A stretch of DNA of 64,000 nt from an uncultured Bdellovibrionales bacterium (GTDB taxonomy: Bacteria; Bdellovibrionota_C; UBA2361; SZUA-149; DAOLCO01): positions 69,066 to 133,065 of the forward strand of contig CAZTBW010000005.1 in the NCBI GenBank assembly GCA_964612555.1. The letters run 5' to 3'. Shown here in pieces: positions 9,720-46,231 of this stretch. The position numbers and the translations under genes were made by a program. The notes under the pieces are model-generated. The model saw only the letters and a program-made list of their open reading frames with translations. It did no database searches and was not told the DNA's origin. Position 1 is the first letter of the stretch. The number at the start of each line of letters is the position of its first letter.

Positions 9720-9969
9720 ATTCTGAACGCCTGCTCAATTACACCCATATCACACAGATATCGTCACAAACACTGAAAAACATTACAAAGGGAATATAGA
9801 TAGGAATGCTTATTGGGAAGTGTTTAGAGTCGAACTCAAGCGGACTGAGGGCACATGAGTAAACATCCAAACCAAAGAACACCCGTCCCGAGGGAGCCAT
9901 TTGACTCTGAACACTTCCCAATAAGCATTCCTACCGCCAGAGACTCTTCTCTAAACACAGAACAAACAC

Positions 9970-17675: not shown

Positions 17676-18737
17676 TTATAAAATAGACTGGATTTTGCAC
17701 TCGAAGTTTCCATCGGTTGCCTGATGGAAAGAACTAAGAAGGGTTTTAACGTCGAAACCCCTGCTCTCCAGCCACATCTTAAGCAAAGGAAACCCTTCCT
17801 GAACGATAACTTTATTACCGTTAGCAAGCACTGGTGCCCCCCAGGTTTCCTCATATGGAACCCGGAGACTGGCGAAAGTCCCTTTTTTCACCTTAAAGCA
17901 TTCGTGAAGATCGGAAACAAGTTTTTGTGGATTTACAAGCCATCTATTGTGGGTAATCCACACCTTCTCTCCTGGACCTGCCTGGATAATCTCCATAGCT
18001 GTCCCAAGATGAAGGCAAGTCGTCTGAGCCACGACCGTTCCAATGAAAGCATCACCATAGATTTCTTTCATAACGGAAGTAAAAGCCTTTCTACCTTCAC
18101 TGTTAGTGCGAACTTCTAATCCTTTAGGTTCAGAGTTTCTGTTGCGTTTTCCCAGGATTACAGCAACCTTGCCGCCAATCTCTACCTGAATCACATCTCC
18201 ACCTTCAAGTTTCGCGCCTACGGGAGAACGAAATACTTTTTTGGCTCGAGGTTTCAGTATCTCCAACAGAGAACCAGGCTCAGAGCGTCTGGTTTTCGCC
18301 CCCATATAAGGAACGAAAAGATTACCGTTAACGACTCTGCCACTATCGCACACGTAGTACGAATCAGGAGGAGCATTCTCAGGCAGAGGAATTTCCTCTA
18401 CAGGAAAGCCAAGATGTCCTTCCACGAGTTCCTTAAAGTTTTGATGCTCAGTTTTGAGCCCTTCAACAAACCCTTCAGGACCAAATTCGGAAAGTAACTG
18501 CTCCTTGTTTTCCGCATTATGAAACGAAATACCCAAGTGGGCGTTAGCGCCAGGTGCAACAAGCATCACACCGTCTTCAAACCCCCTTTTCAAAAGTAAC
18601 TCTCCTTTTTTTGGCAAGACTCGTGGTTTAACCTTCTTTTTCCTTTTTTTAACTACAGAACGTCCTGTATCTGCTTCTTTTTTCTTAACTACCATCGCCA
18701 TGGATTGATACTCCCTCTCCATTGCAATTAAGTACAA
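17676..18737 (-). CDS. amidinotransferase-superfamily protein (DDAH / arginine-deiminase-like) with a basic N-terminal extension
   Basis: A C-terminal TDGNFECKIQSIL (Gly-x-x-Cys nucleophile position) and an internal HLGT block resemble the guanidino-group-modifying enzyme fold. The N terminus is Lys-rich (VVKKRKKKVKPRVLPKK). Confidence 0.4.
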   Translation of the reverse strand: MYLIAMEREYQSMAMVVKKKEADTGRSVVKKRKKKVKPRVLPKKGELLLKRGFEDGVMLVAPGANAHLGISFHNAENKEQLLSEFGPEGFVEGLKTEHQNFKELVEGHLGFPVEEIPLPENAPPDSYYVCDSGRVVNGNLFVPYMGAKTRRSEPGSLLEILKPRAKKVFRSPVGAKLEGGDVIQVEIGGKVAVILGKRNRNSEPKGLEVRTNSEGRKAFTSVMKEIYGDAFIGTVVAQTTCLHLGTAMEIIQAGPGEKVWITHNRWLVNPQKLVSDLHECFKVKKGTFASLRVPYEETWGAPVLANGNKVIVQEGFPLLKMWLESRGFDVKTLLSSFHQATDGNFECKIQSIL

Positions 18738-19055: not shown

Positions 19056-19904
19056 TCAAAAATGTGCTCTATACCCCTTATAACCTTCTTTGAAGGACGG
19101 ATAGAGGAATGAAAAGCCTGAATTCAGAACTTTGAGGTTACTAACCCCCTTCCCTCCGGGAGAGCTCTCAGACCGGATATCCAGAGCACCAAGACCATTC
19201 ATCTGACGAATGAAGTTTATAACCTCAAGCCTCGGCACCGGACAGGAATCACTGATATTAAAAATCCCTTCGGAATTTGGCATTAAAAATAAACACGCGC
19301 GAGCTCCATCATGGACATGGATTCTGTTTGTAAGACTATCCCGTAGCGGCACTTCAGCCTGAGTCATCGAACATGCAAGATCATAAAGAGAGCGTCTCTT
19401 CAAACCATAAATACCGGAAAACCGTAAAATCAGAAATCTCTCAAGAAAGTCACTCTCACTAAAACAAGCCTGAAGAATTTCCTCCCCTTCTCTGATTATG
19501 TAAGACCGAAAACTTTCTCCACCAAGAGGAGAATCTTCAGTAACAAGACCCCCATCATCTTCAGAATAAACTCCCGTACTGGATATAAAAGTAAAATTTT
19601 TGAGAGGACGCGCCCCTTTCCTCGACCGAAAATAATTCAGTATATTTGAAAGTCCATTCACATAGACCTCTCTGTATGCGGCTTCAGAAGACTCCCCCGC
19701 CGATACAGAATACACTACATGAGTAATATCTGATGGAATATGCGAAAAAGAACCCGGGTCAAGAACATCAAGATAAATCATTGATTGATTGCCGACTTCT
19801 GATGAAACTTTCCTGCTGCTGCCCAGAACCTGAACACCCGCAGCATCCGCAAGTTTCATAATTTCTCCACCTAAATAACCTGCTCCTGTAACCAGAAGCT
19901 TCAT
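19056..19904 (-). CDS. NAD-dependent epimerase/dehydratase (SDR) family protein
   Basis: N-terminal Rossmann motif MKLLVTGAGYLGGEI. The start overlaps the stop of the upstream ABC exporter (ATGA), indicating translational coupling. Confidence 0.7.
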   Translation of the reverse strand: MKLLVTGAGYLGGEIMKLADAAGVQVLGSSRKVSSEVGNQSMIYLDVLDPGSFSHIPSDITHVVYSVSAGESSEAAYREVYVNGLSNILNYFRSRKGARPLKNFTFISSTGVYSEDDGGLVTEDSPLGGESFRSYIIREGEEILQACFSESDFLERFLILRFSGIYGLKRRSLYDLACSMTQAEVPLRDSLTNRIHVHDGARACLFLMPNSEGIFNISDSCPVPRLEVINFIRQMNGLGALDIRSESSPGGKGVSNLKVLNSGFSFLYPSFKEGYKGYRAHF

Positions 19905-21739
19905 CAGGAATTGACCTCAAGAACATCAAGAGGATTGGTCAGTATTGCGGTCTCAAGTGGAGAACCATTTTTAATATTCTTTTCATAGTCCTCCCACATT
20001 TTAAAGAAATATTTTTTTCTGCTTATTAACTCAGGGAAGGAACCTACTTCCAGTACCTGGCTGTTTGCCATAACCACAATACGATCAAAAAGAGGAATAA
20101 GATTAAGTCTGTGGCAGGAGGAAACAATCATTCGATCAGAAAAATGATAGAACATACCAAGATAAATTTCTTTTTCAGTTTTAGGGTCAAGACTTGAGGT
20201 AGGCTCATCAAGAAGAATAATCTCACGGTTTTTTGCCCGTATAAGCCCACGTGCAAGAGATAAGCGCTGCCGTTCTCCAACAGAAAGATTTAGACCCTTC
20301 TCCGCAAGACTTGTTTTTATTCCTCTGGGAAGCTTTGCAACCAGAGTATCAAGCTTGCACAGGGATATGAAAAAAGAAATTTCTTTCTGACTGAACTCTT
20401 CCCCCATGGTCAGATTATATTCAAATGTCTCCGAAAACACCTCCGGCTCCTGTGGAAGGAGAAGACACATTTTTGAAATATCATAAAACGTAAGATTATC
20501 CTGAAGATCGGTGGATATTGATACAGTGTCCGGCTCAATAAGCCTCCCAAATGCCTTTAGCAGCGTAGATTTACCACTTCCACTGGGACCTACTACCGCT
20601 ATTTTCTCGCCTTTACAAAAATCAAGCGCTACCTCATTTAAACCAACTTTTTCTCCTTCAACATAAGTGAAATTAAGATCTCTTATGTTCATCATCTGCC
20701 ATTCAGGGAGCACGCTGCTTGGTGCTCTTGAGGGAAGTGCATCTTCTGCTTCTTCAAAAATCCTTACCGCATCTTCATATGCGGTAGAAGCTTCGATCAT
20801 ACCGCTATAATATCCGGTAAATGAACCAATCGCCTGAAAAATACGATCAAGATAGTTCAGAAGCACATACACCTGTGCCACATCAAAGGCACCTCCTGTC
20901 TGCCCGTAATTTATAAAATAAATCACCAGGGAAAGGCTGATCACCAGAGCATATCCGACCCCGGTAGTACCCCATTTCAGCTCCATAAACGCAGCGATTG
21001 CCTGAGACAGCACCCTCCCCTCTTCCTTCTGGGAATAAAGCCTGCTTTTTGCGGGAGCTTCAAGATGAAGTGTTTTTACGGTAACAATATTACTTAATGA
21101 ATCAACACATATTCTGTTCAATTTGTCATTGAACATATTGTTTCTTCTGATTCTTGCGGTAAGTTTTTTATTGAAAAGAATCATGGCAAGAATAGTAAGC
21201 GTAGACATCGTAAGAACACTTACCGCTACCCAAAAATCAAGCGCGAATATTGCAACTCCGGCAAAAATAACTTTAACCAGACCTTCTATAATTTGCCACA
21301 CATAGGTACCCACCATACTCTCAATCGCACCCGCAGAACGATGAAGCCTGCTCAGGTTCTCTCCCGAGTGATGCCTTACGTGCCAGGACAGAGGAAAATC
21401 TACCAGGGTGTTAAACACCTTTGACATGATGTTTATTCTACCTACATACGCCACCCGGTTCTGCACCCAACGTGCCAAATGATGGAATAACGTATGACCA
21501 AACCTCAGGAGGGCAAACAACCCGATACCAATAAGTCCCTTATGGAGCGCCTCCTCTGTTGCCCCCATAGTGACAAAAACCCCAAGAATATATCCAACCG
21601 CCCAGGGAACCATCAGGTCTATGGAGTAAGCAAGTATGAATAGAACAATAAAGAGGTAAAAACGAGGTCTCTCCTCTGCAATAGCTTCCCAGGAAGCTTT
21701 AATGAGGGGTGCAAATGATCTCTTCTTTCTTCGCTGCAT
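19904..21739 (-). CDS. type-I ABC exporter with fused permease and ATPase (MsbA/NdvA-ChvA-like). Candidate glucan or lipid exporter.
   Basis: Six-helix TMD followed by an NBD with Walker A GPSGSGKST, signature LSVGERQRLSLARGL and Walker B ILLDEPTSSLD. Confidence 0.8.
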   Translation of the reverse strand: MQRRKKRSFAPLIKASWEAIAEERPRFYLFIVLFILAYSIDLMVPWAVGYILGVFVTMGATEEALHKGLIGIGLFALLRFGHTLFHHLARWVQNRVAYVGRINIMSKVFNTLVDFPLSWHVRHHSGENLSRLHRSAGAIESMVGTYVWQIIEGLVKVIFAGVAIFALDFWVAVSVLTMSTLTILAMILFNKKLTARIRRNNMFNDKLNRICVDSLSNIVTVKTLHLEAPAKSRLYSQKEEGRVLSQAIAAFMELKWGTTGVGYALVISLSLVIYFINYGQTGGAFDVAQVYVLLNYLDRIFQAIGSFTGYYSGMIEASTAYEDAVRIFEEAEDALPSRAPSSVLPEWQMMNIRDLNFTYVEGEKVGLNEVALDFCKGEKIAVVGPSGSGKSTLLKAFGRLIEPDTVSISTDLQDNLTFYDISKMCLLLPQEPEVFSETFEYNLTMGEEFSQKEISFFISLCKLDTLVAKLPRGIKTSLAEKGLNLSVGERQRLSLARGLIRAKNREIILLDEPTSSLDPKTEKEIYLGMFYHFSDRMIVSSCHRLNLIPLFDRIVVMANSQVLEVGSFPELISRKKYFFKMWEDYEKNIKNGSPLETAILTNPLDVLEVNS

Positions 21740-21974: not shown

Positions 21975-23651
21975 ATGCAAAAATCCTACTCTCTGACATT
22001 CAAAAGACTCTGGAAATTGATCCGCGGCATCTTTCAGTCCGACCTGAAGTGGTATGCCTATGGGCTGGTAGCACTTCTCATACTGTTTGCCCTGACGATT
22101 GCCGGCATCAACGTAATGATAAGCTATATTAATCGTGATCTCTTTAACGCACTTGCGCTGAAAGATCAGACCAAGTTTTTTGAAAAACTGTTTCTTCTTC
22201 TTGGAAGTTTTCTTCTCGCTACTCCTGTAACCGTTCTATATGCTTACACGGAACAACGCTTTGGACTCATGTGGAGAAAATGGCTCAGCAGAGAAATCCT
22301 CCAAAAGTATTTTAAGGAGTCAGCATTTTACAGAATCAGCTGGCATGAGGGCATTGATAATCCTGATCAGAGAATTGAAGAAGATATTCGAACCCTCACT
22401 ACGGGGCTTATCAGCCTCTTCATCATTATTGTAAACTCGATGCTTACCCTGATCATGTTTGTAAGCATATTATGGTCTATCACACCAAACCTCTTGTTTG
22501 CAGTAGTAGTGTATGCCTTCGTGGGCTCAATACTTACCTTTATCATTGGCAGAAAGTTAATTTCTCTCAACTTTACCCAGCTCAAAAAAGAAGCGGACTA
22601 CAGGTACAAACTGGTTAATATTCGTGACAACGCAGAACCGATCGCATTTTATCAGGGTGCTAAAAAAGAATATATCCGCGCACGACAGCGTCTTAAAGAA
22701 TCACTTAATAATTTCCTTAAAATTATCAATCTGAACCTGCAATTAGGTTTATTTGTTAATATTTATAATTACCTTAAACCGGTACTGCCTATTATAATAG
22801 TTACCCCATTATACATGCGGGGAGAAATTGAATTCGGACAGATTACTCAGTCCGCAGATGCCTTTGTCCGCGTCGTTGAAGCCCTTTCTGTTATCATTCA
22901 ACACTTTGGAACGATAAGCACCATGGCTGCCGTAGTGACTCGTCTCGGCACCTTCACTGAAACTCTCGAAGCTGCGGCAGAAGAAACCCATTGCCATTTT
23001 CCAAGGATTCACACCAGACACGCTCCCTATATTGAGATCAAAAATCTGACCATGACAACCCCTAATGGTGAACAGACACTCATCAAAGACCTTTCAATAG
23101 CACACAGGGAAGGTGGACTTCTCATTTCCGGAGCAAGTGGTCTCGGAAAAACTTCACTTCTTCGTGTCATTGGTGGGCTCTGGATATTTGGAGAAGGAGA
23201 GATTACAAGACCCGAAGATAAGGATTGCATGTTCATCCCTCAGCGACCCTACCTGACACTTGGCTCTCTTCGCAATCAATTACTATACTCTAACCCTTCT
23301 ACCGCATATACAAATGAAGAACTCAGAGAAGTACTCGTTAAAGCGGGATTACACAACCTGCTTAGAAGAATCAAAAGTTTCGACAAAACCTATGAGTGGT
23401 CAAACCTTCTTTCTGCCGGAGAACAGCAACAACTTGCATTTGCACGATTGTTATTAAGAAAACCCAGATTCGTTTTCCTTGATGAAGCAACCACCTCCGT
23501 TGATGCCACCACTCAAAATAAATTATATGAGCTCGTGATGGAACACTGCACCGCCTGGGTGAGCGTTGGATATAAGAGCAGCATTGGTTCATATCACCAC
23601 ACGCTGCTTGAATTCAGTATTGATGGCACCTTTACCTGTCACACGTTATGA
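21975..23651 (+). CDS. ABCD-family (YddA/SbmA-BacA-like) ABC transporter with fused permease and ATPase
   Basis: TMD with the ABCD 'EAA-like' motif (NIRDNAEPIAFYQG). NBD with GASGLGKTS, signature LSAGEQQQLAFARLL and Walker B VFLDEATTSVD. About 558 aa, like E. coli YddA. Confidence 0.8.
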   Translation: MQKSYSLTFKRLWKLIRGIFQSDLKWYAYGLVALLILFALTIAGINVMISYINRDLFNALALKDQTKFFEKLFLLLGSFLLATPVTVLYAYTEQRFGLMWRKWLSREILQKYFKESAFYRISWHEGIDNPDQRIEEDIRTLTTGLISLFIIIVNSMLTLIMFVSILWSITPNLLFAVVVYAFVGSILTFIIGRKLISLNFTQLKKEADYRYKLVNIRDNAEPIAFYQGAKKEYIRARQRLKESLNNFLKIINLNLQLGLFVNIYNYLKPVLPIIIVTPLYMRGEIEFGQITQSADAFVRVVEALSVIIQHFGTISTMAAVVTRLGTFTETLEAAAEETHCHFPRIHTRHAPYIEIKNLTMTTPNGEQTLIKDLSIAHREGGLLISGASGLGKTSLLRVIGGLWIFGEGEITRPEDKDCMFIPQRPYLTLGSLRNQLLYSNPSTAYTNEELREVLVKAGLHNLLRRIKSFDKTYEWSNLLSAGEQQQLAFARLLLRKPRFVFLDEATTSVDATTQNKLYELVMEHCTAWVSVGYKSSIGSYHHTLLEFSIDGTFTCHTL

Positions 23652-26566
23652 ACAGAATACTCTTCTTACTGATAAGCATATTCACCGTTCAGGGTAGTAC
23701 CGTTCTTAACGCCGGAGCGGAAACTCAGAACGAGATAAGATTCTCACCTGAACAACTGGTTGATCTTGCTTTCAAAGACTGCCCGGAACTGCTTCAATAT
23801 CTGAGCACCCCGCACGTACAGGCATCCCAATATGAAAAATTTCAGATAGGAGAAGCCCTGACAAGGATTCTTGAGCTTGAATCTCCAAACATACCTTCGG
23901 GAATGCAGGCTTCAAGCATATTGTACGATACCTACTTTCCCTCTGATATATCACGGGTTCTTGAACCTGATCGTGAAAATGAAGCCAAGCTGTGCACTTT
24001 GCGGGCTCTCACCATGATAGCCCCGCAATCAATTGCATTTACTCCCGTTCTTTTTAAATTGACTTTGAGAAAAACCATCTCCGGAAATATTCGCCTTGAA
24101 GCACTTGATACCGCAGACAAAATCCTCTCAACAGTTTCCTCACCACTTGATGATGAGAGTAGACAAATACTTCTTCGCCAGATTCAGAAACATTCGGGTA
24201 TTTTAAGTGACCCGATCTCCATATCCTTACTCGCATATCTCGCCAGATATCATCTTCAGGATCTCCTGAAATTGATGTCAAAAGACCACAGAATAACGCC
24301 TGTCGCAATGAAAGCAATAGCAGGAACCGACCCTGATGGAACACGCAGCATCCCATTACTGAAAGACAGCAGCACCCTGTGGGACGAAACCGGAATTTCA
24401 TTGATCATAAAACATCTTTCCTTGTTTTCTGCCGAGGCGGCTCCACATATCATCGAATTCATTGGTGAGGTACTTGGAAATTTTTCAGCCGGAAAAAGTA
24501 ATAAAATAAGAAAAGAAATTTTCTCTATTCTGAACATTCTTACGTCCAAACCTTCTACCTTCTCTGACTATTATCTGGAGCACAATTTGGAGGAAGACAT
24601 ACTTAATCAATATCTTTCCCTTCTTCAAACCGAAAACAAAAGCAATAAAATAATAATTTTCAAACTGCTTTCAAAGATACAAATTCCATCTGAATATCAG
24701 ATATGCAGTAACGATGAAGCGGAACTAAGATCTCCTCTGCTTACGGAAGCTCCCGGAAGCGAGTACCTACACTCTCTCTTAACTCATCTCATGTGCCCTC
24801 TTTCTGCTGAAAAAAAGAAAGAGATGCTTACATGGCTGGAAACAGAAGATAATTACGCAAAAACAACTATTGCAATTTCCGCCCTGGGTCATCATACAGC
24901 AATTGACCAACAAGCGGTTTCTGCTCTCAGAAAACTACTTGCAAAACTCGCCAAGGACAAGAAAAACAAAGAGCTGGAACATCTAAGCGCCCTCTCCTTT
25001 TTCTACATATCGCAAAGTGCATTTGATAAACATTTCAATCAACTACTTCCTTTTGCCATCGAACATCTTCAAACATCCGGAGAACTCCCCCCTATTTTCA
25101 GAGAAACCATTACGGACTCAATTCACCCGGGCATGCTATTCTTCCTTGCACACGGAAGACATACCACCGCACAACTTGGAGAACTACTTGATCATAAAAG
25201 TGCTCTCGTGAGACTTCGCGCTGCAAGTATTCTATCTTCCCCCGAGATTCCATACACTCCGTCTCACACTGCCTATTTCATAAAACTGCTTGATGACCCC
25301 GAAATCGAATTACAGAACATTGCGTTTGAGACGCTCAAAAAACAGGTAAAAGAAGCTGATTTAAAACTCTTTGTCAAAAATCTTAAAAATGAAAATTCTC
25401 TTAAAAAGTTTTATAGTACCAATATTATTTTTGACAGATTTATACACGACACCGAGTCAGATTTGACAAAAAAGCTCGACTCTCAGTTCTCCGTAAAAGA
25501 AATTTTCCAGCAATATGCTTCAGTCCTTCCTGAAATACCCTGTTCCATAAAAGCGAAACAAATTCCCGATGCCGTCTTTAGCAAAATATCAGATCAAACA
25601 TTTGCGCTTCAGTCTGAAATTGTAAAATCTCATCTTACCTGTGCTGCGTTTTCCACAGACCACTTCGAGCAAGTGGCACGCCTGCTTACCCATATTAAAA
25701 AGAAATCACCACACGTAATTGAACTTTTCTTCAAACAAGTCAAAAAAAGAAAATATTATTTAGCCAACACTACATTGTTTGATCTCACTGCTGACATACT
25801 CACCGGAACTTCCGAAATATCGCATGAGTTTATAGAGTTTCTGCTTCACCACACTAAAAATGCAGAAAGTATATATCTCTATCAATGGCTGCAAAAAAAC
25901 AGGCGCTACACCAACGACAACAAAGAGGTGATTGAAAAACTTTTAAAAAACACATACCCAAACAAATCAACAAATGAACTGAATAAATTATTTTTAAAGC
26001 TGTTTCTCGGTGATTCCAATCCTGAATCCTGGTATCCTGATCTGAAAAAACAAAAACTGAACGAGGATTCGCTTCGTGATTTTCTTAAACTGATTCCTGA
26101 ATCCGAACTACGTTCTTTGATCACCTCTCTGGGAAACCATGAAAGACCAGATCATTACTACATATCCTTTAAATCACATGTCTGCACCCTCGCTCCCTTT
26201 GAAGATAATTGCAAAGTCCTTTTTAACGAGATGAAATCTGTACTTTTAGATCACCCATCAATGTTACTTTCTGCTTTACTTTTTCAAGCCGATCGGTATC
26301 TTGACTATGAAACTTGCGATGCAGAACATCAGTTGAATCTCATTTCGTGTGAGGAAAGAAGAGAAGCAATCCTTGGTGAAGCCGTATTATTACTTGAAAA
26401 ATTATTACTAAGTGGTAGCTGGCTCCAGAGTACTCCGAACCAGGACACTAAAAAATTATCTGTTTTACTTGATATACTTACGGCATCTGATGCCCCATAT
26501 CACTTACAGGTTTTATCAAAACTGTTTCGCATAAAATTGCTTGACGATAGTACTATTAATTTGTAA
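23648..26566 (+). CDS. signal-peptide-bearing 972-aa alpha-helical repeat protein of unknown function, probably periplasmic
   Basis: N-terminal signal peptide (MNRILFLLISIFTVQGSTVLNAGA). Leucine-rich helical repeats throughout (HEAT/ARM-like by composition). Its start overlaps the ABC transporter stop (ATGA) and it ends 15 nt before cgs. Confidence 0.6.
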   Translation: MNRILFLLISIFTVQGSTVLNAGAETQNEIRFSPEQLVDLAFKDCPELLQYLSTPHVQASQYEKFQIGEALTRILELESPNIPSGMQASSILYDTYFPSDISRVLEPDRENEAKLCTLRALTMIAPQSIAFTPVLFKLTLRKTISGNIRLEALDTADKILSTVSSPLDDESRQILLRQIQKHSGILSDPISISLLAYLARYHLQDLLKLMSKDHRITPVAMKAIAGTDPDGTRSIPLLKDSSTLWDETGISLIIKHLSLFSAEAAPHIIEFIGEVLGNFSAGKSNKIRKEIFSILNILTSKPSTFSDYYLEHNLEEDILNQYLSLLQTENKSNKIIIFKLLSKIQIPSEYQICSNDEAELRSPLLTEAPGSEYLHSLLTHLMCPLSAEKKKEMLTWLETEDNYAKTTIAISALGHHTAIDQQAVSALRKLLAKLAKDKKNKELEHLSALSFFYISQSAFDKHFNQLLPFAIEHLQTSGELPPIFRETITDSIHPGMLFFLAHGRHTTAQLGELLDHKSALVRLRAASILSSPEIPYTPSHTAYFIKLLDDPEIELQNIAFETLKKQVKEADLKLFVKNLKNENSLKKFYSTNIIFDRFIHDTESDLTKKLDSQFSVKEIFQQYASVLPEIPCSIKAKQIPDAVFSKISDQTFALQSEIVKSHLTCAAFSTDHFEQVARLLTHIKKKSPHVIELFFKQVKKRKYYLANTTLFDLTADILTGTSEISHEFIEFLLHHTKNAESIYLYQWLQKNRRYTNDNKEVIEKLLKNTYPNKSTNELNKLFLKLFLGDSNPESWYPDLKKQKLNEDSLRDFLKLIPESELRSLITSLGNHERPDHYYISFKSHVCTLAPFEDNCKVLFNEMKSVLLDHPSMLLSALLFQADRYLDYETCDAEHQLNLISCEERREAILGEAVLLLEKLLLSGSWLQSTPNQDTKKLSVLLDILTASDAPYHLQVLSKLFRIKLLDDSTINL

Positions 26567-26581
26567 ATCAAACGGAAACGT

Positions 26582-29500
26582 ATGCCACAAAGTTTTTTAA
26601 AAAAATTAAGCTCTTCACGACACCCTAACGAGGGGAAACCATTCCGATCTGAGATTCTCTCAAAAGAACTTTTGGGTCTTCATGCTGTCGATATCGCAAA
26701 AGCATCTCCTTTAGCTACAAAATACATAAAAGCAATTCCCCTGAAAAACAAATTCAGGGAAAACTGCAAATCATTAAACTCAGTCTACTTTTCACTTTCC
26801 GAAATCGCATCGAAAAAAGGTTTCCTTGCTGCCGGTGCAGAGTGGTTACTGGACAATTACCATGTAATTGATGAGCAGGTTCGTGAAATCAGGAGAGACC
26901 TTCCCGCAAGCTACTACAAAGCCCTTCCTAAAATCGCATCCGGCGAGTGGAAAGGGTATCCGAGGGTATTTAGAATTACCTGTGATTATATTGAACACAG
27001 CGATTCCATGATTCAGTTGGAAACTCTTTCAGAGTATATTTCTTCATTTCAAAAAGAACATGTGCTGAATATTAATGAACTCTGGGCTATCCCCATCATG
27101 CTTCGGCTTGCCCTGGTTGAGAATCTCAGAAGGCTTTCCCAGTCGGTACTCAGGTTTTCACTTGAAAGAGAATATGCCGAAACGATTTTTAACAGGATTG
27201 CACACAAAAAAGACATATCCTCAACTGAGATTCTTAGCCAAATACTCCAAAACGTCTCACCCAAACACGAACAAATAGATATCCTCTTTCCTTTACTGAT
27301 TGCCCGACTGAGAACACTCGGAAGTAGTTCAGCTCTGGGCATTCAATGGCTTGAAGAAAAAGCACGCGAAAAAGAAGTTAACATCCATGAATCCACCAAA
27401 AAACAACAACAACTTCAGGCATCCGATCAGATTTCAATTGGAAATGCCGTTACTTCATTAAAAAACATTGGGCGACTTGACTGGAGAGAATGGGTCGAGT
27501 CTCAGTCTATCGTCAACCAGATTCTATCCAGAGAACCTTCCAATATTTTCAGCTCGTCAGACTTCTACACCAGAGATCTGATCAGACATAAAATTGAAGA
27601 CCTTTCAAGAAAATATAAATGCCCTGAAACTCACATTGCCGAACTTGCACTTTTTCTTGCCAAAAACAATCCGGATACAGAACTTCCGTATAAATCTCAT
27701 GCGGGATATTATCTGATTGATGAAGGAATAGACGAACTTGAAAAAGAAATCAGTTCCGGAAACAATCTTCAAAGGAACATACGTTCTCATTTCAAAAACA
27801 ACTCTTTTCTTTATTATTTACTGACCATACTTATAGCAACGGCGAGTATCAGTTTCTTTTTAACTGATCAACTTACTGACCCGGGCACCTCTGCCGGATA
27901 TCTCTTTTTAATTTTTATTTTACTGTTTATCCCTTCCAGCCAGCTCGCACTTGAGTTCATCCAGTGGATATCATCCAAACTGCTTACTCCGGAGCCTCTA
28001 CCAAAGCTGGACTACGATACGGGGATTCCGGATACTGCGGCAACTCTTGTGGTAATCCAGTCAATTGTTTCAAATAAAGATCACTTACTAAAAACGATTG
28101 ACGATCTTGAGATCCGAGCTATTGGCAACAAAAATGCAAATATTTCATTTGGAATTCTTGCTGATTTATCTGATGCACCCACCAAAGATACTCCGGGTGA
28201 TAGCGACCTTATATCAAGCAGTTTTAAAAAAATCCGGGAACTAAACTCTCAGTATGAATCCGAGGGAATACATTTTTTTATTTTATTCAGGGAACGCAGG
28301 TGGAACGAATCTGAGAAGAAATATATTGGATGGGAGAGGAAAAGGGGTAAGCTTATTGAATTTAATCGACTTCTTCGAGGAGCCGAGGATACTACTTTCA
28401 GCAGCTTTGAAGGGGATCTGAACATCCTTAGAAAAGCTACGTTCGTAATCACACTTGATAACGACACACAGCTTCCGCCCGGTACGGCAAAAAAACTCAT
28501 CGGATGTGCCGATCATCCACTTAACAGCCCGGTTATAAACTCAGAAAAGAGAATAACAAGCAGAGGATATGGAATTATTCAGCCTCGTGTCGGCATCACT
28601 CTTGAAAGCGCCTCTGCTACTCCATTTGCTTCTATTTCTTCAGGACAGTCCGGTCTTGACCCTTACACAAGAACTATCTCGGATATATATCAGGATATAT
28701 TCAGGGAAGCCTCTTTTATCGGAAAAGGTATTTATCACATAGATACTTTCATTCAGGTACTTGATACAAGATTTCCCGAAAACAGCATTCTCAGTCACGA
28801 TCTTCTGGAAAGCGGATACGTGCGATGTGGTCTTGCATCAGACATTGAAGTATTTGATGAATTTCCCAAACGGTATCATGCACACGCAAAGCGTCAACAT
28901 CGCTGGATAAGAGGTGACTGGCAACTGGTTAAATGGCTCTTACGTGTCACTCCCACCCAAACCTCAAAAGAAAAGAACCACCTCTCGCATCTGGTACAAT
29001 GGAAACTATTTGATAACCTGAGAAGAAGCCTTCTTCCTCTTAGCTTACTACTACTAGTGTTCGTAACATCTCTAAATAATTTTTCACTCACTCTTCTTGC
29101 AATTATTTTTCTTCTAAGTGGGTTCAGGACTTATTCACTTGTATATTCCATGCTTTTTAATATCCCGATAGGGTATTCAATATCTACACACTTTCATACA
29201 GTATTCAGGGATATAAAAAGCAGTTTTCTTTCCTGGTGTTTTGAGCTGATTACACTGCCCCATCAGGCATACATATCATCTGATGCCATTATTCGGACGC
29301 TCTACCGTGTATTTATTTCAAAACAAAATCTGCTGGAATGGGAAACCGCATTAAGTTCTGAATTGAGATTAAAAGCAACATTAAGCTCTTTTGTACAGTC
29401 AATGAAAGGTGCCTATGTTATCTTGCTTCCTCTGGCACTCCTTCCTCTTCTGGCTACGAATCTTACCACATGGGCGTATCTGTTAGTTATAGGACTTTGG

Positions 29501-32500
29501 GCGCTTGCTCCACTTCCTGCATGGTTGATCAGCAGAGATTACAGTAATCGAACTTCACTGCTTTCAACTGCGGATAGAAAATATCTTACAAATGTTGCTC
29601 ATGACACCTGGAGGTATTTTCGAAACCATCTCAAGGAAGAGTATCATTATCTCATACCTGATAATATTCAGCTTAACCCTCAACCTGTCGTTGCAGAAAG
29701 AACCTCACCTACCAATATATCGCTTTCTCTTATGGCGCTCACTTCAGCATACGATCTTGGATTCATCCCTTCACCGGTGCTCCTGGAGTCCTCCAACAAA
29801 ATTTTACTCAGTGTTCAACAACTTGAACGCTTTCAGGGACACTTATTAAACTGGTACGCCTTAAGAGATTTACGACCACTACACCCAAGATACGTTTCAT
29901 CGGTAGATAGTGGGAATTTTGTAGGTCATTTAATAGTCCTTAAGGAAACACTTAGAGCACTCCCCTATTCTCCTCTCATACACGAAGCGCACATGAGAAT
30001 ACTGTCTGAGTATCTTGAAAAACCGCTGGATTTAACTCTCAGGTCTGGCAATGAAGTATTTCATATGCTTACCCCTGAGATAGAAAGACATATAGCGGAC
30101 AAAACACACCTTCAAGATGTCGAACAGGAGCTTCTAAATGATTTCTCTTCAGTAGTTCCCTACACTCGCTGGATCAGCAGGCTCTTTATCCTTGAAGAAC
30201 TGGGTCGACTTCATGTACTACCGAAAAAACTTTCCCGCATTCAGGAAATAGTAAAAAACAGACCTCTTACGCCTTTTCTCATAAACAAAATAGTATCAAG
30301 AATCCTGGCTTCCGAAGATAAAATATTTACAGACTCTCTGACTGAAAAACAGCGGGATTCTTTAGTAGCACTATTTAAAGACCTGACTACCGCAAAAGAT
30401 ACCATTTCTATTTTCTTCGATACCATCAAGTCACTTTCTAAAATTATCGAAACCCTGATCGAAGAAACGAACTTCAATTTTCTGTATGACAAGCAGAAAA
30501 AACTGCTTTCTATAGGATATAATATTGAAACCGCTTCCCTTGACAGCGGCTCATATGACTTACTTGCCTCAGAAGCCCGACTTGGCAGTTTTGTGGGAAT
30601 TGCAAAGGGAGACCTACCTCATCTGCATTGGTTTTTCCTGGGGAGAGCGCTCACAGAATCATCCGGTGGTAAAGCGCTCATATCCTGGTCTGGTACCATG
30701 TTTGAATACCTCATGCCGATTCTTGTAATGAGGAACTACCCCTCAACTCTTCTTGGTAAGACCTACCAATCAGTCATAAAAGCTCAACAATCGTACTGTT
30801 TCAGAAGAGGAGTCCCCTGGGGTATTTCCGAATCAGCATATGGAACGGTTGATTTTGAGAACACCTATCAGTATCGGGCGTTCGGAGTACCGGGGCTGGG
30901 ACTTAAACGAGGATTAATTGAAGATCTGGTAATTTCACCTTATTCATCGGCGCTAGCCCTTCAGATTACACCATCAGAGGCAACCAAAAATCTTCATGCA
31001 CTGGAAACTATCGGAGCTCGTGGTGAATATGGTTTCTATGAAGCGATTGATTACACTCCGGAACGACTTACCAGTGAAGAGTCTTTTCACATTATTAAAT
31101 CATTCTTTGCGCATCATCAGGGCATGACGATAACCGCTATTAACAATGCCCTGAATGGTAACATTATTCAGGAACGATTCCACAAAGACCTGAGAGTACA
31201 AGCATGTAACCTCTTACTACAGGAACGCTTTCCAAATCGGATTCCTCTCATACTTCCACATCAGGCTGAACTCCTTCTTATCGAATCCGGTGAACAGGAT
31301 TCAAGGTATGATACTCAGGAACATTTTAAATCACCTCATCAACCGTTTCCAAGAACGCACCTGCTTTCAAACGGAGAATATACGGTCTGCATTGATCACA
31401 GAGGAAACGGTTTCAGCAGCTTGAATAATGAATACCTTGTAAACCGTTTTACACCTCTTGCAAGATATACCAACCAGGGGCAATACATTTTCATCAAAGA
31501 TGAGCTAAAAAACCTGTTCTGGTCTAACACGTATTATCCGTGCAAACATGAACCGGAATCGTACGAAGTCTTATTCGCACCTGACAAGGTAGAGTATCAA
31601 AGACGTGACTTTGACGTTCATACCATGACTGAAATAGTGGTATCTCCTGAAGATAATATCGAGATAAGAAAAGTCGGGCTCACAAATCACTCTTCATCAC
31701 TAAGAAAACTAAGTCTTAGCAGCTATGTCGAGGTAGCCCTTGCTTCTGCAAGAGCAGACGCGGCACATCCGGCGTTCTCAAAACTGTTTCTGGAAACTCA
31801 GTGGGTTCAAGACCCCGAGGTGCTACTTTGCATCAGGAGACCACGTGCGGGTGAAAAAGAGAGTCCTATACTTTTTCATTTTGCGGCTTCTGAAGTAGTT
31901 TGGGAACCAACTCAGTACACCACTGACCGGCTCGAATTTATCGGACGTGGCAATACCCTTTCCACACCACGTGCACTTTATTCCGATACACGTCTTGATA
32001 AAAAAACCGGATATGTACTCGACCCCTGTTTGTGTATTAAACAAATTGTCGAATTAGATGCGGGGGAATCGACCAACATATATTTTATTACGGGGTTTGC
32101 CCAGAGTGTAGAAGAGGCGATGTATCTCTGTAAAAAATATAAAGAGACACAATCTATCAGAAGAGCGGCGGAACTTGCATGGAGCCATGCAAATGTTGAG
32201 CAGAAGAATCAGCAGTTTCTCAAAGCAAGTACGCTTGATTTTCAGCATCTTGGTAATGCTCTTTTGTATCCTCTTGAAGAACTTCGGGATATCTCCATCA
32301 CAAATACCCCGCAATTATCGCAAACCGGTCTCTGGAAAATGGGCATCTCAGGTGATGAACCGATCATATTATATTACATAGATGACACATCCTATATCGC
32401 ACACTTTCAGGAGATGATTTTTGCTCATGAGTTCCTTCGCACACGAGGAATAATTTTCGATCTGGTAGTTTTAAACGATAAATCAGAGGGGTACATACAA

Positions 32501-40900: not shown

Positions 40901-41869
40901 TTAAGGATATGCAGCACTTTTTATAAAATAAACTCCCCCACTACCCACGCTCTTAACGTGAGCAGGAACAGACATAAAATTTGAAAGATTCCTTATTCCA
41001 TGCACAACCGTATTATCAAAAGTTACACCACTTGAATTGGAAACCACCAGAGAAGCTGAAGTCGAATTGATAGCGTAGGTTCCACGAATGACACTGTTTT
41101 TTATCACTATATCTCTCGATCCTGAAATTAGAAATCCATTATGAACCGCTCCATCAATAATAAGCCCTTCAAAAAGAATTCCTCTACACCCATAAACTCT
41201 GACACCTGACTTAAAAGAGTTGGATTTCAATATAGGGATCTCACCAGGATAGTTTTTGAATGTAATCATGTTAGAAGGAGTAGCTTGAAGCCCGGATATG
41301 TTCAACATCGTGTTCTGTACCTGAGCACCTGAGTCATATCCATAGAGACCAGAAAATAAATATACGACATCCCCTCCCTGAAGAGTTGAACCCTTTACCA
41401 AAGAATCAATTGATTTCATACGATTTGAAAAACTGCCACTGCCAGAAACAGTACCAAAAACAGAATCTGCGTAGTAGCAAGTACCTGTAGAGGATTCACA
41501 GAGCGGGGTACAAACGCAACTCGAAAATGAACCATTTGCCTGACAGGTTTTATACCCCTTACCACAGGAGGCTTCACATCCAACCGAGATACCGGGATAT
41601 ACAAAACGATTGGTATCATCACAATCCTGAGAAGCAGGAAATCCATCTCTATCCTTATCATTTCCCGGACAAAGCGTATCAATACCGTCACAGTTTTCAT
41701 CAAGTCCGTTACCACAAACCTCACCACCTCCCTGACAAGACTCAAATTCAATCGAAGTGAGTTGCAGCATATCCTGAGAAATCGCATCTAAACTATATGT
41801 AACGATGAGGAAAAAAACAGATAGCGATAAGAAAAGCTGCCTGATAAATTGCATTCTGATACATTGCAT
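40901..41869 (-). CDS. secreted protein with a MopE-like Cys-rich Asp-repeat module followed by a right-handed parallel beta-helix (pectate-lyase-fold) domain
   Basis: Signal peptide. CGNGLDENCDGIDTLCPGNDKDRDGFPASQDCDDTNRFVYPG resembles the DG-x-DNDCDG putative metal-binding repeat. The C-terminal NSVIRGTYAINSTSASLVVSNSSGVTFDNTVVHGIRN gives beta-helix rungs. Confidence 0.55.
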   Translation of the reverse strand: MQCIRMQFIRQLFLSLSVFFLIVTYSLDAISQDMLQLTSIEFESCQGGGEVCGNGLDENCDGIDTLCPGNDKDRDGFPASQDCDDTNRFVYPGISVGCEASCGKGYKTCQANGSFSSCVCTPLCESSTGTCYYADSVFGTVSGSGSFSNRMKSIDSLVKGSTLQGGDVVYLFSGLYGYDSGAQVQNTMLNISGLQATPSNMITFKNYPGEIPILKSNSFKSGVRVYGCRGILFEGLIIDGAVHNGFLISGSRDIVIKNSVIRGTYAINSTSASLVVSNSSGVTFDNTVVHGIRNLSNFMSVPAHVKSVGSGGVYFIKSAAYP

Positions 41870-42008
41870 AGCAAGCCCCGGTTATTATAACTACTGTTTC
41901 GGAGGAGTATATTATACTATTCTATCCTAGTTTCCAGAATTAGTGAAGGATTGTTTTTACTAAATTATTGTTTATTCATCAGGATTTCAACTTCTTACAT
42001 TTCCCGGC

Positions 42009-43451
42009 ATGTCATTACTTCAACAAATGATTATTGGTGGTTCCTGGTTGAGTCTGTGCAAACTCATCAGCCAGATCATTTCCTGGACTGCTACTATAGT
42101 AGTAACCAGACTCCTCACTTCACAGGATTATGGTCTTATGGAAATGGCAACCATTTTCACTGGATACATTAGTTTTTTTGTTGAATTCGGGATTGGTACG
42201 GGCATCATCAACAAGGACAAAATCTCAAAAGAAGAACTTTCTTCAACATTCTGGTTTCTTCTGCTCTGGGGACTTCTACTGGCGGTTACCTGTCTTGGAC
42301 TTGCACCCGTAACTGTCAGCTTCTTTTCAGAACCAGGATTATATCATCTCACTCAGGCAGTCGGGATTCTGTTTATAATATCTTCGCTCTCAATTGTACC
42401 AAGGAGCATCCTGCATCGAGACCTCAGATTTAAGGAAGTAGGAATAATTGAGATCATCAGTGTTGTCACCTCCTGCCTGATAATGGTGATAGCTGCCATG
42501 TATGGAGCAGGACCATGGACTTTACTTCTTGGGCATATCAGTAAAGAATTAATAAGTCTGATTCTATTTTTTGTCCGTTCCAGATTTATACCTTCATTCT
42601 GTTTTTCCTTTTACCTCTTCACACCACTGTTAAGGTTCGGTACTCCTGTGGTGCTTTCAACTTCACTTTATTATATTTACACCAAAGCTGATCGCTTCTT
42701 TGGTGGGAGAGCTTTTGGAGCAGAAGAGCTTGGATATTATGCAATTGGGCTTCAACTTGCGGCAATCCCGGTCGAAAAAATTGTATCAATACTCCAAAGT
42801 GTTCTCTTTCCAGCACTCTCAAAACTCAAACATCAAAGAGAAAACTTTAATACAGTATATCTTTCCTTTGTAGAATTTCTGGGGCTTATAACATTTCCGC
42901 TCTTTATAGGTGGCATATTAGTTGCTCCTGAACTTGTCATTGTAGTTCTTGGTGAAAAGTGGCGACCTGCTATACCTCCTTTACAAATCCTCCTTGCAGG
43001 ACAACTGGTAATGGCAATTTCTGCACCAAACGGACTTATTCATGCAGCAAGAGGAGTTCCCAAGTGGAATCTTGTTTTTAATATGATTCTTACTCCCGCT
43101 CTGGTGGTCGGATTTTATTTCAGTGCAAAAGAGGATGAGCTCTACAAACTGGCACTGCCCTGGGTAACTATTTTTCCCCTGTTTCAGGGAGCATACATTT
43201 ACATAACAAACAGAGAGCTTGGTATCACTATGCGACGATACCTTTCACACCTCATGCACCCGTTTTTTGCCTGTCTTTGTATGAGTGCATGCATCATGGG
43301 GATTAACTCATTCTGGTCTGAATCAAAAGAAACCCCGTATTATCTTTCCATAACTATTCCACTTGGAGCACTTTCTTATTGTTTATATTTCATGACAATT
43401 GGAAAGAATTCTATAAAAAGACTTCTGGAACTGAGACACGGCAATATTTAA
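42009..43451 (+). CDS. wzx: Wzx-type oligosaccharide flippase (MOP superfamily polysaccharide biosynthesis protein)
   Basis: 480 aa, about 12 TM helices, with an N-terminal block MSLLQQMIIGGSWLSLCKLISQIISWTATIVVTRLL typical of Wzx/RfbX. Confidence 0.75.
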   Translation: MSLLQQMIIGGSWLSLCKLISQIISWTATIVVTRLLTSQDYGLMEMATIFTGYISFFVEFGIGTGIINKDKISKEELSSTFWFLLLWGLLLAVTCLGLAPVTVSFFSEPGLYHLTQAVGILFIISSLSIVPRSILHRDLRFKEVGIIEIISVVTSCLIMVIAAMYGAGPWTLLLGHISKELISLILFFVRSRFIPSFCFSFYLFTPLLRFGTPVVLSTSLYYIYTKADRFFGGRAFGAEELGYYAIGLQLAAIPVEKIVSILQSVLFPALSKLKHQRENFNTVYLSFVEFLGLITFPLFIGGILVAPELVIVVLGEKWRPAIPPLQILLAGQLVMAISAPNGLIHAARGVPKWNLVFNMILTPALVVGFYFSAKEDELYKLALPWVTIFPLFQGAYIYITNRELGITMRRYLSHLMHPFFACLCMSACIMGINSFWSESKETPYYLSITIPLGALSYCLYFMTIGKNSIKRLLELRHGNI

Positions 43452-43452
43452 G

Positions 43453-44688
43453 ATGGAATCGCACAAGAAGAAAATACTTGTAGTAACAGATCAAGTCCCA
43501 AGGGATTCATCTCAGGCGGGAGCACCAAGGATCTTTGAACTCTGCAAGGCACTTAAAGACAAGTATGAGTTTCATCTGTTTCTGATAACATCAGATGACC
43601 CTGAAATTGAGATCCTCAACCTTGAACGGGTTTTCTCTCAGGTTCACATCAGATATTTTGATTCTTCCATCACCGAAACTTCAAAAAGACTGTTTCGTCT
43701 TCTAAGCCCCACTGCAAGCTTTGATTATCGCATAACCCACAAAAAAGAATTACAAAACATAAGATCTGAAATACGTGAACATTATACCACCGAGGGTTTT
43801 GGTGGCATCCTGATCGACCAACTCAGAGCCTCCCAGTTTATTGATGATACACTCAAACAACATGCCGTTCTTGATTTTTGCGACTGTCTTACAAAACTTA
43901 ATTTCAGATATGTAAAAGGAATGGGCTCAGTACGATGCAGGCTTTCAACCATAATGGCTGTAATTGGTCTCTTTTTCTGGGAGCGTTCAGAGGCAAGGAA
44001 AGTATATGCAAGTTGTCTCGTATCCGGGGATGACCTTGGTATATTTAAATGGGGTCTAGCTGAAAAATCTATTCCTCACATCGTCCCTCTGGGTATAGCT
44101 ACTGATTACTTTTTCAGTAAGTCCCCTCTCCCTTCAAAGCACTCATTAATGTTTTTCGGCACACTGAATTATACTCCCAATACCGATGCCTGTATATGGC
44201 TTGCACAGGAGATATTTCCTTTGATAAAAAAATCATTCCCTGAAAGTACTCTTGAGATTATCGGAGCCAATGCCCCACAAAAGGTTTTAAGTCTTTCCGC
44301 TATTCAAGGAGTCAGTATCTTTACTGATGTCCCGGATATACGTCCATATATTGAAAGAAATGCGATATGTCTTACCCCGCTTCGGCTTGGTGCCGGTGTC
44401 AAGAACAAGATTCTTGTAGCGATGTCCTTGGAGCGTCCCGTAATCAGCACTCAGATTGCACTTGAGGGTCTTCATAATAAAATCAGTAATCAGGCACTTG
44501 TTGGTAATACCCCGGAGGAGCTTGCAAAAAGAGTCACTGATTTGTTTTCCATAATTTCTTCCGAGTCTTCCCGTGATAAGTTTTCAGAAAAGCTGAAAAA
44601 CATAAGGAACAATGTTATAAGCATATATTCCTGGGAGATATGTGCAGAACCACTTGATAAACTTCTTGATAAAGCTTCTACATCCTGA
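43453..44688 (+). CDS. glycosyltransferase family 4 (GT-B, group 1) protein
   Basis: The C-terminal half has a GT1/GT4 fold signature (FFGTLNYTPNTDA...LRLGAGVKNKILVAMSLERPVIST). The start is 2 nt after the wzx stop. Confidence 0.65.
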   Translation: MESHKKKILVVTDQVPRDSSQAGAPRIFELCKALKDKYEFHLFLITSDDPEIEILNLERVFSQVHIRYFDSSITETSKRLFRLLSPTASFDYRITHKKELQNIRSEIREHYTTEGFGGILIDQLRASQFIDDTLKQHAVLDFCDCLTKLNFRYVKGMGSVRCRLSTIMAVIGLFFWERSEARKVYASCLVSGDDLGIFKWGLAEKSIPHIVPLGIATDYFFSKSPLPSKHSLMFFGTLNYTPNTDACIWLAQEIFPLIKKSFPESTLEIIGANAPQKVLSLSAIQGVSIFTDVPDIRPYIERNAICLTPLRLGAGVKNKILVAMSLERPVISTQIALEGLHNKISNQALVGNTPEELAKRVTDLFSIISSESSRDKFSEKLKNIRNNVISIYSWEICAEPLDKLLDKASTS

Positions 44689-44690
44689 AC

Positions 44691-45643: not shown

Positions 45644-46228
45644 ATGAAACCAAAAAAGCAGAATTTGCTGTTAGATCAAATGGAAGCGGGGCGTGTGTAT
45701 AGACGTCAGGAGCTGTCTTCTTTCTCAAAAGCAGTGGACAGAGATTTAGCTGCACTTGTGAAAGAAAAGAAAATAGAAAAGGTGGGGGCGGGTCTTTATT
45801 ATAAACCGATGGTTTCCAGCTTTGGATTATTACCCCCCGAACAACGTGAAATAGTTCGAGCTTTTTTAAAAACAGATGATTTTCTTCTTACTTCGCTGAA
45901 TTACTTTAATGGTCTTGGGGTTGGTTTAACTCAGCTCAGTAACGAAATGCTTGTCTATAATCGCAAACGTACAGGAAAGTTCAATCTTGGTGGCTTGGTT
46001 TATAACTTTCAAAGACCACTGAATTTTCCACGACCCTCAGAAATAAATGAAGAATATCTATTTGTTGATATGCTCAATAACTACGAAAACCTTTACGAAC
46101 CTCCAGAGCAATTCAAAAACATTCTCAAGAAAAAAGCCACAAAGCTTAAGAAAAAAGAATTGCTGCATGCGGTAAATATGTATGGCAAGGTCAGAACAAA
46201 TAAAAAACTGCAAGAACTTTTAAGTTAA
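45644..46228 (+). CDS. AbiEi-like antitoxin (type IV toxin-antitoxin system, transcriptional regulator component)
   Basis: 194-aa protein located 4 nt upstream of an AbiEii nucleotidyltransferase gene. The N terminus is winged-helix-like (RVYRRQELSSFSKAVDRDLAALVKEKKIEKVGAGLYY). Assignment is mainly by genomic context. Confidence 0.55.
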   Translation: MKPKKQNLLLDQMEAGRVYRRQELSSFSKAVDRDLAALVKEKKIEKVGAGLYYKPMVSSFGLLPPEQREIVRAFLKTDDFLLTSLNYFNGLGVGLTQLSNEMLVYNRKRTGKFNLGGLVYNFQRPLNFPRPSEINEEYLFVDMLNNYENLYEPPEQFKNILKKKATKLKKKELLHAVNMYGKVRTNKKLQELLS

Positions 46229-46231
46229 GTA

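Follow-up and report, generated by a model that had tools for sequence, protein, structure and literature searches.

An intact, probably competent synthase of cyclic beta-1,2-glucan at the end of a conserved five-gene block in an uncultured Bdellovibrionales bacterium

A 64,000-nucleotide stretch of genomic DNA from an uncultured Bdellovibrionales bacterium (contig CAZTBW010000005.1, forward-strand positions 69,066 to 133,065; hereafter the window, whose own numbering is used throughout) carries at 26582..35218 on the plus strand a giant gene, cgs, for a protein of the Cgs family, the synthases of cyclic beta-1,2-glucan. The gene very probably encodes an intact and competent synthase and closes a fixed block of five genes. 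Its reading frame is uninterrupted, its domain order and catalytic residues are those of characterised enzymes, these features are conserved throughout the family, and the synteny of the block is conserved as well. What sets the locus apart from described systems is the accessory set encoded with the synthase; the synthase itself is one more intact Cgs.

The single 8.6-kb open reading frame (ORF) reported by a first-pass annotation of this DNA was recovered exactly in the ORF listing; it starts with ATG and encodes 2878 amino acids. In DNA of approx. 42% guanine plus cytosine (GC), a stop-free frame of 2878 codons would arise by chance with a probability of approx. 1e-60, or (61/64)^2878, and thus a chance origin is excluded. 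The same annotation had described a glycosyltransferase (GT84) and a phosphorylase-like (GH94) domain, both of which are present, but it had overlooked the GH189 cyclase, the N-terminal domain and the priming tyrosine. The whole gene is identified by its ORF, a 1810-bit match to Agrobacterium tumefaciens Cgs, its Pfam domains and the presence of the functional residues. It begins with an N-terminal cytoplasmic domain (approx. residues 56-400, 26747..27781), colinear with the N-terminus of A. tumefaciens Cgs, followed by predicted transmembrane helices 1-2 (residues 409-460, 27806..27961), the GT84 domain (27989..29011; alignment to PDB entry 8rf9 and a script check of residues), predicted transmembrane helices 3-6 (residues 813-983, 29018..29530), the cyclization (CY, GH189) domain (29561..31246; 440 bits to the T. 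italicus cyclization domain 8wy1) and the GH94 phosphorylase (length-control) region (31343..35107; PF06165, PF17167, and alignment to 8rf0 and cellobiose phosphorylase). In Pfam, the GH94 supersandwich PF06165 matches two stretches (E 6.6e-125), the GH94 catalytic domain PF17167 covers residues 2379-2803 (E 2.7e-117), Glycoamylase PF10091 coincides with the cyclase region (residues 1348-1535), and a weak GT2-like match lies at residues 728-844. The approximately six transmembrane segments, which flank the glycosyltransferase region, correspond to hydropathy peaks at 409-427 and 442-460 and to two helices each in 813-854 and 941-983; they were counted from a plain Kyte-Doolittle scan, which is not a topology predictor. 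The 2878-residue protein is therefore organised as expected for the family, that is, as a single chain of approx. 2800-2900 residues with the order N-terminal domain, GT84, CY and GH94. It carries three catalytic modules, not two, and all of them look competent from their sequences.

The roles of individual residues were taken from studies of A. tumefaciens Cgs (Atu; PMC10901819) and of the GH189 domain of the Thermoanaerobacter italicus synthase (TiCGS, Ti; PMC10834661), mapped via HMMER alignments and then checked one by one by script against the translation of the ORF. Each of the 15 residues that experiments have implicated is kept. In the GT84 domain, D528 corresponds to Atu D527, D626 and D628 of the LDNDT motif to Atu D624 and D626, and the catalytic base D740 (SHDLLE) to Atu D739; R774 and W775 lie in a QHRW motif, R774 being equivalent to Atu R773. 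The Agrobacterium enzyme builds its primer on Y694, an autoglycosylated tyrosine (PMC10901819), and this residue (GIDPY) aligns with Y695 (GLDPY) in the IF1-homology loop of the window protein. In the cyclase, S1106 and D1109 match Atu S1101 and D1104, the acid/base E1331 (DLLASEAR) matches Atu E1300 and Ti E1356, the supporting, pKa-tuning E1375 matches Ti E1400, the nucleophile E1417 (WGISES) matches Ti E1442, and the histidine pair H1511/H1512 matches Ti H1536/H1537. In the GH94 domain, D2430 (GFRDQ) is the counterpart of Atu D2393; D2564 (DWNDG), as the catalytic acid, is that of Atu D2528 and of the DWND aspartate of cellobiose phosphorylase. The catalytic aspartates that the first-pass annotation had singled out for comparison with the Agrobacterium enzyme (the DxD pair, the base and the GH94 aspartate) are all in place. 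Across 70 aligned full-length homologues, whose median pairwise identity is approx. 42%, 14 of the 15 residues are invariant (70/70), and the uridine diphosphate (UDP)-coordinating D528 is found in 67. At the level of sequence, this alignment confirms that conservation of the tyrosine-primed three-domain machinery extends well beyond the model organisms.

The best PDB match of the protein is A. tumefaciens Cgs (8rf0/8rf9, 1810 bits), a structure solved by cryo-EM, which aligns colinearly over residues 56-1134 and 1291-2839. The Agrobacterium protein, known as Cgs or ChvB (8RF0, 8RF9; PMC10901819), has as its orthologues Cgs of Brucella abortus and NdvB of Ensifer meliloti. It is of similar length (approx. 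2820-2830 residues) and shares with the window protein all functional residues, approximately six transmembrane segments and the order N-terminal domain, transmembrane helices, GT84, transmembrane helices, CY and GH94. The two differ in that identity to the alphaproteobacterial copies is only approx. 36-40% and residues 1135-1290 of the window protein do not align with the Agrobacterium sequence. Moreover, the host is not an alphaproteobacterium, no ChvA/NdvA orthologue lies next to the gene when curated thresholds are applied, and the five-gene block to which it belongs is a different one, specific to its lineage. The T. italicus cyclization domain, on which family GH189 was founded and whose crystal structure is known (8WY1; PMC10834661), spans residues 994-1555 with 440 bits, and the nucleophile, the acid/base, the E1400 equivalent and the His-His pair are kept in both proteins. 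This CY domain by itself makes cyclic beta-1,2-glucans, and its host is a free-living thermophile (PMC10834661). In neither case is the host a plant or animal symbiont; the comparison differs in that only the isolated TiCGS domain has been characterised and in that the enzymes come from different phyla and gene neighbourhoods. At a Thermoanaerobacter locus (L045), a gene for an ATP-binding cassette (ABC) ATPase lies downstream of cgs. In its sequence, the window enzyme shows each of the tested features by which the Cgs/ChvB/NdvB family is defined.

The other four genes of the block precede cgs. On the minus strand lie the gene for ABC611, an MsbA/ABCB-like type-IV ABC exporter (19904..21739; ABC_membrane and ABC_tran domains), and, immediately downstream of it, a gene for a short epimerase-like protein of the NAD-dependent epimerase/dehydratase family (282 residues, 19056..19904; PF01370). 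Divergent from ABC611, on the plus strand, run the genes for ABCD558, a half-size transporter of the ABCD/SbmA-BacA/Rv1819c type (21975..23651; ABC_membrane_2, SbmA_BacA and ABC_tran), for X972, a predicted secreted HEAT-like alpha-solenoid of 972 residues (23648..26566), and for Cgs. There is a 4-bp overlap between the ABCD558 stop and the X972 start, and X972 ends 15 nt upstream of cgs; this spacing is consistent with a single transcription unit comprising ABCD558, X972 and cgs. A convergent gene for a BrxC-like protein begins 5 nt after the cgs stop, and cgs is thus the last gene of its unit. An Rfam search of the whole window gave no matches at the gathering threshold, so no riboswitch or small RNA was detected near cgs.

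The block is present in eight lineages, and in all of them gene order, orientation and the 4-bp overlap are kept. Apart from the window, these comprise a metagenome-assembled genome (MAG) labelled Bdellovibrionales (L001) and seven metagenomic contigs that represent six further lineages (L082/L083, L084, L085/L086, L087 with a partial copy, L088 and L089). The flanks of the block differ between lineages, except in L082, which has comM and a 244-residue ORF in common with the window. The epimerase-like gene occurs in every complete copy. Identity to the window follows a constant order: ABC611, the most conserved gene, at 71-89%, ABCD558 at 60-88%, Cgs at 53-73%, the epimerase-like protein at 37-51% and X972 at 20-45%. 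In particular, Cgs of the related genomes L083, L084, L085, L089 and L001 is intact at 53-73% identity, which points to long-term purifying selection. As side observations on these copies, the same cgs is an intact 2878-residue ORF on L083 (4717-13353) and was called as two pieces of 2520 and 315 residues on L082 (12950-21428); the two contigs carry an identical X972-family protein, and the split probably stems from a frameshift introduced in sequencing or assembly. Immediately downstream of cgs on L085 (22296-23299) and L089 (21440-22248) lies a nucleotidyltransferase/HEPN (HepT-like) toxin-antitoxin pair.

Both transporters of the block keep the Walker A motif, the Walker B glutamate and a variant signature motif. 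The PDB matches of ABC611 are of the ABCB type, as for a generic type-IV (ABCB/MsbA-like) exporter, and CydD/MsbA-type models fit it slightly better than glucan-exporter models. In characterised systems, chvA adjoins chvB. ABC611 resembles ChvA, NdvA and Cgt as a half-size type-IV exporter with intact ATPase motifs that is encoded near a synthase, but it is divergently oriented, lies two genes from cgs and is not an orthologue by curated criteria; as a candidate ChvA orthologue it was rejected, its scores being far under the curated cut-offs. The cgs-adjacent exporter of a Gemmataceae genome is likewise not a ChvA orthologue by these criteria. ABCD558 contains, according to Pfam, PF06472 (E 1.2e-51), PF05992 (E 1.2e-19) and a PF00005 nucleotide-binding domain, with the Walker A sequence GASGLGKT, the Walker B sequence FVFLDE and the signature LSAGEQQ. 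Its best PDB match is plant ABCD1 (278 bits); Mycobacterium tuberculosis Rv1819c (6tqe) ranks third with 257 bits over nearly the full length, and human ABCD4 is also matched. The fusion of the membrane domain to a nucleotide-binding domain with intact motifs, which marks the ABCD/SbmA-BacA/Rv1819c group, is found in ABCD558, and the ABC_membrane_2/SbmA-BacA domain followed by a nucleotide-binding domain is shared with Rv1819c/BacA (6TQE; PMC10960864) and ABCD4. The mycobacterial protein transports cargo that is large and hydrophilic, and it can work in either direction (PMC10960864). No member of this group is known to carry glucans, and ABCD558 differs further in that its gene overlaps a solenoid gene upstream of cgs. 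The ABCD558-X972-cgs arrangement was not found described, and literature on Bdellovibrio or Bdellovibrionota together with glucan or cyclic glucan yielded nothing relevant.

X972 matches no Pfam family above threshold, HEAT_2 remaining sub-threshold. A word-indexed search of 5.8 billion proteins returned one homologue, and tblastn against the 80 cgs loci described below gave no match at E 1e-5; the family was revealed only by pairwise BLASTP followed by an HMMER profile search, which among 1.84 billion representatives found approx. 11 full-length relatives and a tail of short generic HEAT matches. All relatives that were examined are flanked by an ABCD-type ABC gene on one side and cgs on the other, with no free-standing copy among them. 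The proteins are 920-1170 residues long and are encoded by the fastest-evolving gene of the block (20-45% identity vs 53-89% for ABC611, ABCD558 and Cgs). Members start with an N-terminal hydrophobic segment resembling a signal peptide, followed by an Ala-rich site resembling a cleavage site, and an alignment of 10 sequences contains 25 invariant columns, of which 8 are cysteines (C45, C116, C353, C383, C632, C665, C846 and C855). These features fit an extracytoplasmic, disulfide-stabilised protein. An AlphaFold2 model built from a 10-sequence alignment (pLDDT 82.9, pTM 0.74) predicts approx. 55 paired helices and no strands, in other words the tandem helix-turn-helix repeats of a HEAT/ARM-type alpha-solenoid; an earlier model from a 2-sequence alignment reached only pLDDT 62.9 and pTM 0.39, and its fold matches were treated as uninformative. 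In Foldseek, the matches are eukaryotic HEAT solenoids (CAND1, SF3B1, importin-beta and PP2A-A) with global TM-scores of 0.2-0.27. In L001, the X972 counterpart is split into two pieces in different frames (7056-7538, 160 residues; 7589-9916, 775 residues) that are colinear with X972 residues 42-153 and 246-566; a frameshift or misassembly may lie behind this, or the gene may truly be divided. Periplasmic alpha-solenoid scaffolds are familiar from exopolysaccharide systems, where they are tetratricopeptide repeat (TPR) proteins such as AlgK, BcsC, PgaA and PelB. A tentative analogy may be drawn with X972, a predicted secreted all-alpha repeat protein encoded within a glucan cluster, but its repeats are HEAT-like instead of TPR, it has no beta-barrel module, and the predicted product is a ring in the periplasm instead of a polymer that is secreted; neither Pfam nor Foldseek revealed a sequence or specific fold relationship.

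To place the synthase, species-representative bacterial and archaeal genomes were scanned with peptide patterns from the window Cgs; at least 569 relatives were confirmed, and the best 80 of these were examined. These 80 come from Planctomycetota (Gemmataceae, Pirellulaceae), Bacteroidota, Balneolaceae, Bacillota (Clostridia, Thermoanaerobacter, Syntrophomonas), Chloroflexota, Verrucomicrobiota (Akkermansia, Chthoniobacterales), Kiritimatiellae, Melainabacteria, Acidobacteria, Caldisericota, Syntrophia-type deltaproteobacteria, Xanthomonadales (Dyella, Rhodanobacter, Luteibacter) and Burkholderiales, with a few Alphaproteobacteria. Cyclic glucans are introduced in the literature mainly via symbionts and pathogens (PMC10901819), and the first-pass annotation had regarded an intact synthase outside such a context as unusual. 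This view does not hold: because the best 80 of at least 569 relatives span many phyla and biochemical work already exists on the synthase of T. italicus, a free-living thermophile (PMC10834661), an intact Cgs outside the relatives of rhizobia and Brucella is the normal case in genome data. No partner gene is common to the 80 loci from other phyla. The commonest neighbours are phosphoglucomutase (9 loci, downstream of cgs), phosphofructokinase (8 loci, upstream) and response regulators, e.g., at L036 and L013 for the two sugar-phosphate enzymes; ABC exporters occur at only a few. The two sugar-phosphate enzymes suggest a link between Cgs and the metabolism of glucose-1-phosphate, the product of GH94 trimming.

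The same annotation was right that the organism is no relative of rhizobia or Brucella, as the nearest Cgs proteins come from MAGs labelled Bdellovibrionales and Bacteriovoracaceae. Among the matches listed, the closest genome-derived Cgs is that of L001 (54% identity). In a tree, which was a crude neighbour-joining reconstruction on trimmed p-distances, the window groups in one clade with the metagenomic copy L083 (75%), L001 (56%) and a Bacteriovoracaceae MAG (L007). The remaining copies are approx. 39-40% identical to the window, those of the Alphaproteobacteria Reyranella and Propylenella at approx. 39%. On the basis of the submitters' labels and this simple tree, the host is probably placed in Bdellovibrionota, within which cgs was probably inherited vertically. 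The Bacteriovoracaceae copy lies outside any such block.

A mechanism can be proposed by extension from the Agrobacterium (PMC10901819) and T. italicus (PMC10834661) enzymes; from comparison with these, we infer the product, its export to the periplasm and its physiological role. Cgs in the inner membrane would take UDP-glucose at its cytoplasmic GT84 domain, where D528, D626 and D628 would bind UDP and metal. A chain would be started on Tyr695 and lengthened through beta-1,2 linkages, D740 acting as the base. With D2564 as its acid, the C-terminal GH94 domain would use phosphate to shorten chains that are too long, and the GH189 domain in the middle of the protein (E1417 as nucleophile, E1331 as acid/base) would close the ring by transglycosylation and release a ring of approx. 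17-25 glucose units. The ring would be moved to the periplasm and serve there most likely as an osmoprotectant or envelope solute. Since cgs closes a fixed block of five genes, the likeliest export route would be one or both of the adjacent ABC transporters, and X972 might act as a periplasmic partner. A more far-reaching proposal is only tentative and less likely than not: the block could amount to a cyclic-glucan system of its own, a self-contained variant in which a BacA/Rv1819c-type transporter, perhaps together with the MsbA-like one, replaces ChvA/NdvA/Cgt for a ring of 3-4 kDa and X972 is a dedicated periplasmic partner that binds the glucan or docks to the transporter.

Several points weigh against the picture of a competent synthase that closes a functional block. 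The ring size and the cyclic nature of the product are predicted from homology, at approx. 39% identity to the alphaproteobacterial copies; the evidence for export by ABC611 or ABCD558 is their synteny with cgs, and that for the operon is gene spacing. In a promoter and terminator scan of 18.5-36.5 kb, the number of sites did not exceed that of shuffled sequence. ABC611 reaches 165.9 bits against the glucan-exporter model NF010178 (cut-off 733) and 132.1 against the chvA model TIGR01192 (cut-off 585), and ABCD558 reaches 48.8 bits against NF010178. No relative of X972 is characterised, and the fold matches of its model are a matter of generic repeat similarity. It is accordingly conceivable, if rather doubtful, that the synthase is real but that its four neighbours are unrelated to it in function, serve some other process of the envelope and are merely co-inherited, an unlinked ChvA/Cgt-type transporter being the exporter. 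The shortfall of both transporters against the curated cut-offs, the lack of a universal partner of cgs across other phyla and the missing block at the Bacteriovoracaceae copy would all agree with such a situation. Mere co-inheritance is hard to reconcile, however, with the preservation of order, orientation and the 4-bp overlap in eight lineages in which Cgs has diverged to 53% and X972 to approx. 20% identity and the flanks have changed, or with the position of all X972 relatives examined directly upstream of cgs, none being free-standing.

The remaining alternatives concern the synthase itself. That the enzyme makes another product, i.e., a linear beta-1,2-glucan, a ring of markedly different size or a modified ring, is improbable. 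Identity to the characterised enzymes is only approx. 36-40%, the segment 1135-1290 has no counterpart in the Agrobacterium protein, and an epimerase-like gene belongs to the block; on the other hand, the cyclase nucleophile, acid/base, pKa-tuning glutamate and histidine pair and the length-control aspartates of GH94 are all kept, and the equally distant T. italicus CY domain alone makes cyclic beta-1,2-glucans (PMC10834661). It is scarcely credible that the ORF is an inactive relic, retained, e.g., only as a scaffold. The catalytic aspartate of GH94 is dispensable for function in Agrobacterium (PMC10901819), so parts of the protein tolerate a loss of activity, but a relic would hardly present 8.6 kb free of stops and frameshifts with the catalytic residues of three domains all preserved. 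Nearly as implausible is a recent horizontal gain from a plant- or animal-associated alphaproteobacterium, and with it a symbiosis-type function. The GC content of the block (0.39-0.41) is slightly below that of its flanks (0.43-0.45), which would agree with such a gain; yet the nearest relatives of the synthase form a clade of Bdellovibrionales and Bacteriovoracaceae MAGs at 56-75% identity, against only approx. 39% for alphaproteobacterial copies, L082 shares the left flank beyond the block (ComM and the 244-residue ORF), which indicates vertical descent, and the genes around the block are of the housekeeping kind (nuo operon, fabH/F, murA, prfA, fusA). In particular, a recent transfer of cgs from rhizobia was rejected, as the tree and the identities speak against it. 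An intact and competent synthase of cyclic beta-1,2-glucan at the end of a fixed block thus remains the preferred reading.

The surroundings of the block are those of an ordinary chromosome and include the nuo operon, the isocitrate dehydrogenase gene, comM, fabH/fabF, murA, prmC/prfA and fusA; the window proteins that were looked up are singletons in clusters at 90% identity. The convergent gene next to cgs (35223-35507, minus strand; stops 5 nt apart) encodes a 94-residue BrxC-like monothiol bacilliredoxin (PF11009) with a TRCPIS motif, a family that is unusual outside bacillithiol-producing bacteria. Genes of translation termination are concentrated in the window: an ArfB-like RF-1-domain protein (35602-36015, plus strand, 137 residues, GTG start), followed after 2 nt by ogt for a methylated-DNA methyltransferase; prfC (36553-38178, minus strand); and prmC with prfA (56163-58227, minus strand). 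A second envelope and polysaccharide cluster occupies 38700-45566 and encodes a 705-residue protein with a polysaccharide-lyase-like/3-keto-disaccharide-hydrolase-like domain, a 322-residue protein with a sub-threshold MopE-type metal-binding motif and a beta-helix, a Wzx-type flippase (Polysacc_synt_3), a GT4 glycosyltransferase and a TM2-domain protein. At 45644-47179 on the plus strand, a 315-residue AbiEii-type nucleotidyltransferase toxin follows an unannotated 194-residue ORF, possibly as a type IV toxin-antitoxin pair. On the other side of the block, between it and an AMIN-domain protein (15836-17095), a 353-residue protein (17676-18737, minus strand) matches dimethylargininases weakly and no Pfam family. 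Finally, a metagenomic contig from JGI sample 3300076002 (L081) encodes an EF-G at least 90% identical to that of the window and has the same order of PMT_2, OmpA, fusA, prfA and prmC, which places a close relative of the host in this sample; the more divergent block copy L082 comes from the same source.

Given how widely cgs genes are distributed, cyclic beta-1,2-glucans should not be taken to indicate an association with plants or animals. Most cgs genes outside Alphaproteobacteria have no recognisable ChvA-type exporter adjacent to them, and the block, with its Rv1819c/ABCD-type ABC transporter, orphan, predicted secreted solenoid and Cgs, offers a testable candidate for an alternative route of glucan export or handling. 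It also gives the otherwise unannotated X972 family its first genomic context. If the block is indeed a self-contained cyclic-glucan system, X972 would be the first cyclic-glucan-specific accessory protein family outside Alphaproteobacteria. Moreover, if the host belongs to Bdellovibrionota, the glucan could serve the purposes of a predator, such as osmotic balance or masking in the prey periplasm, over plain osmoadaptation.

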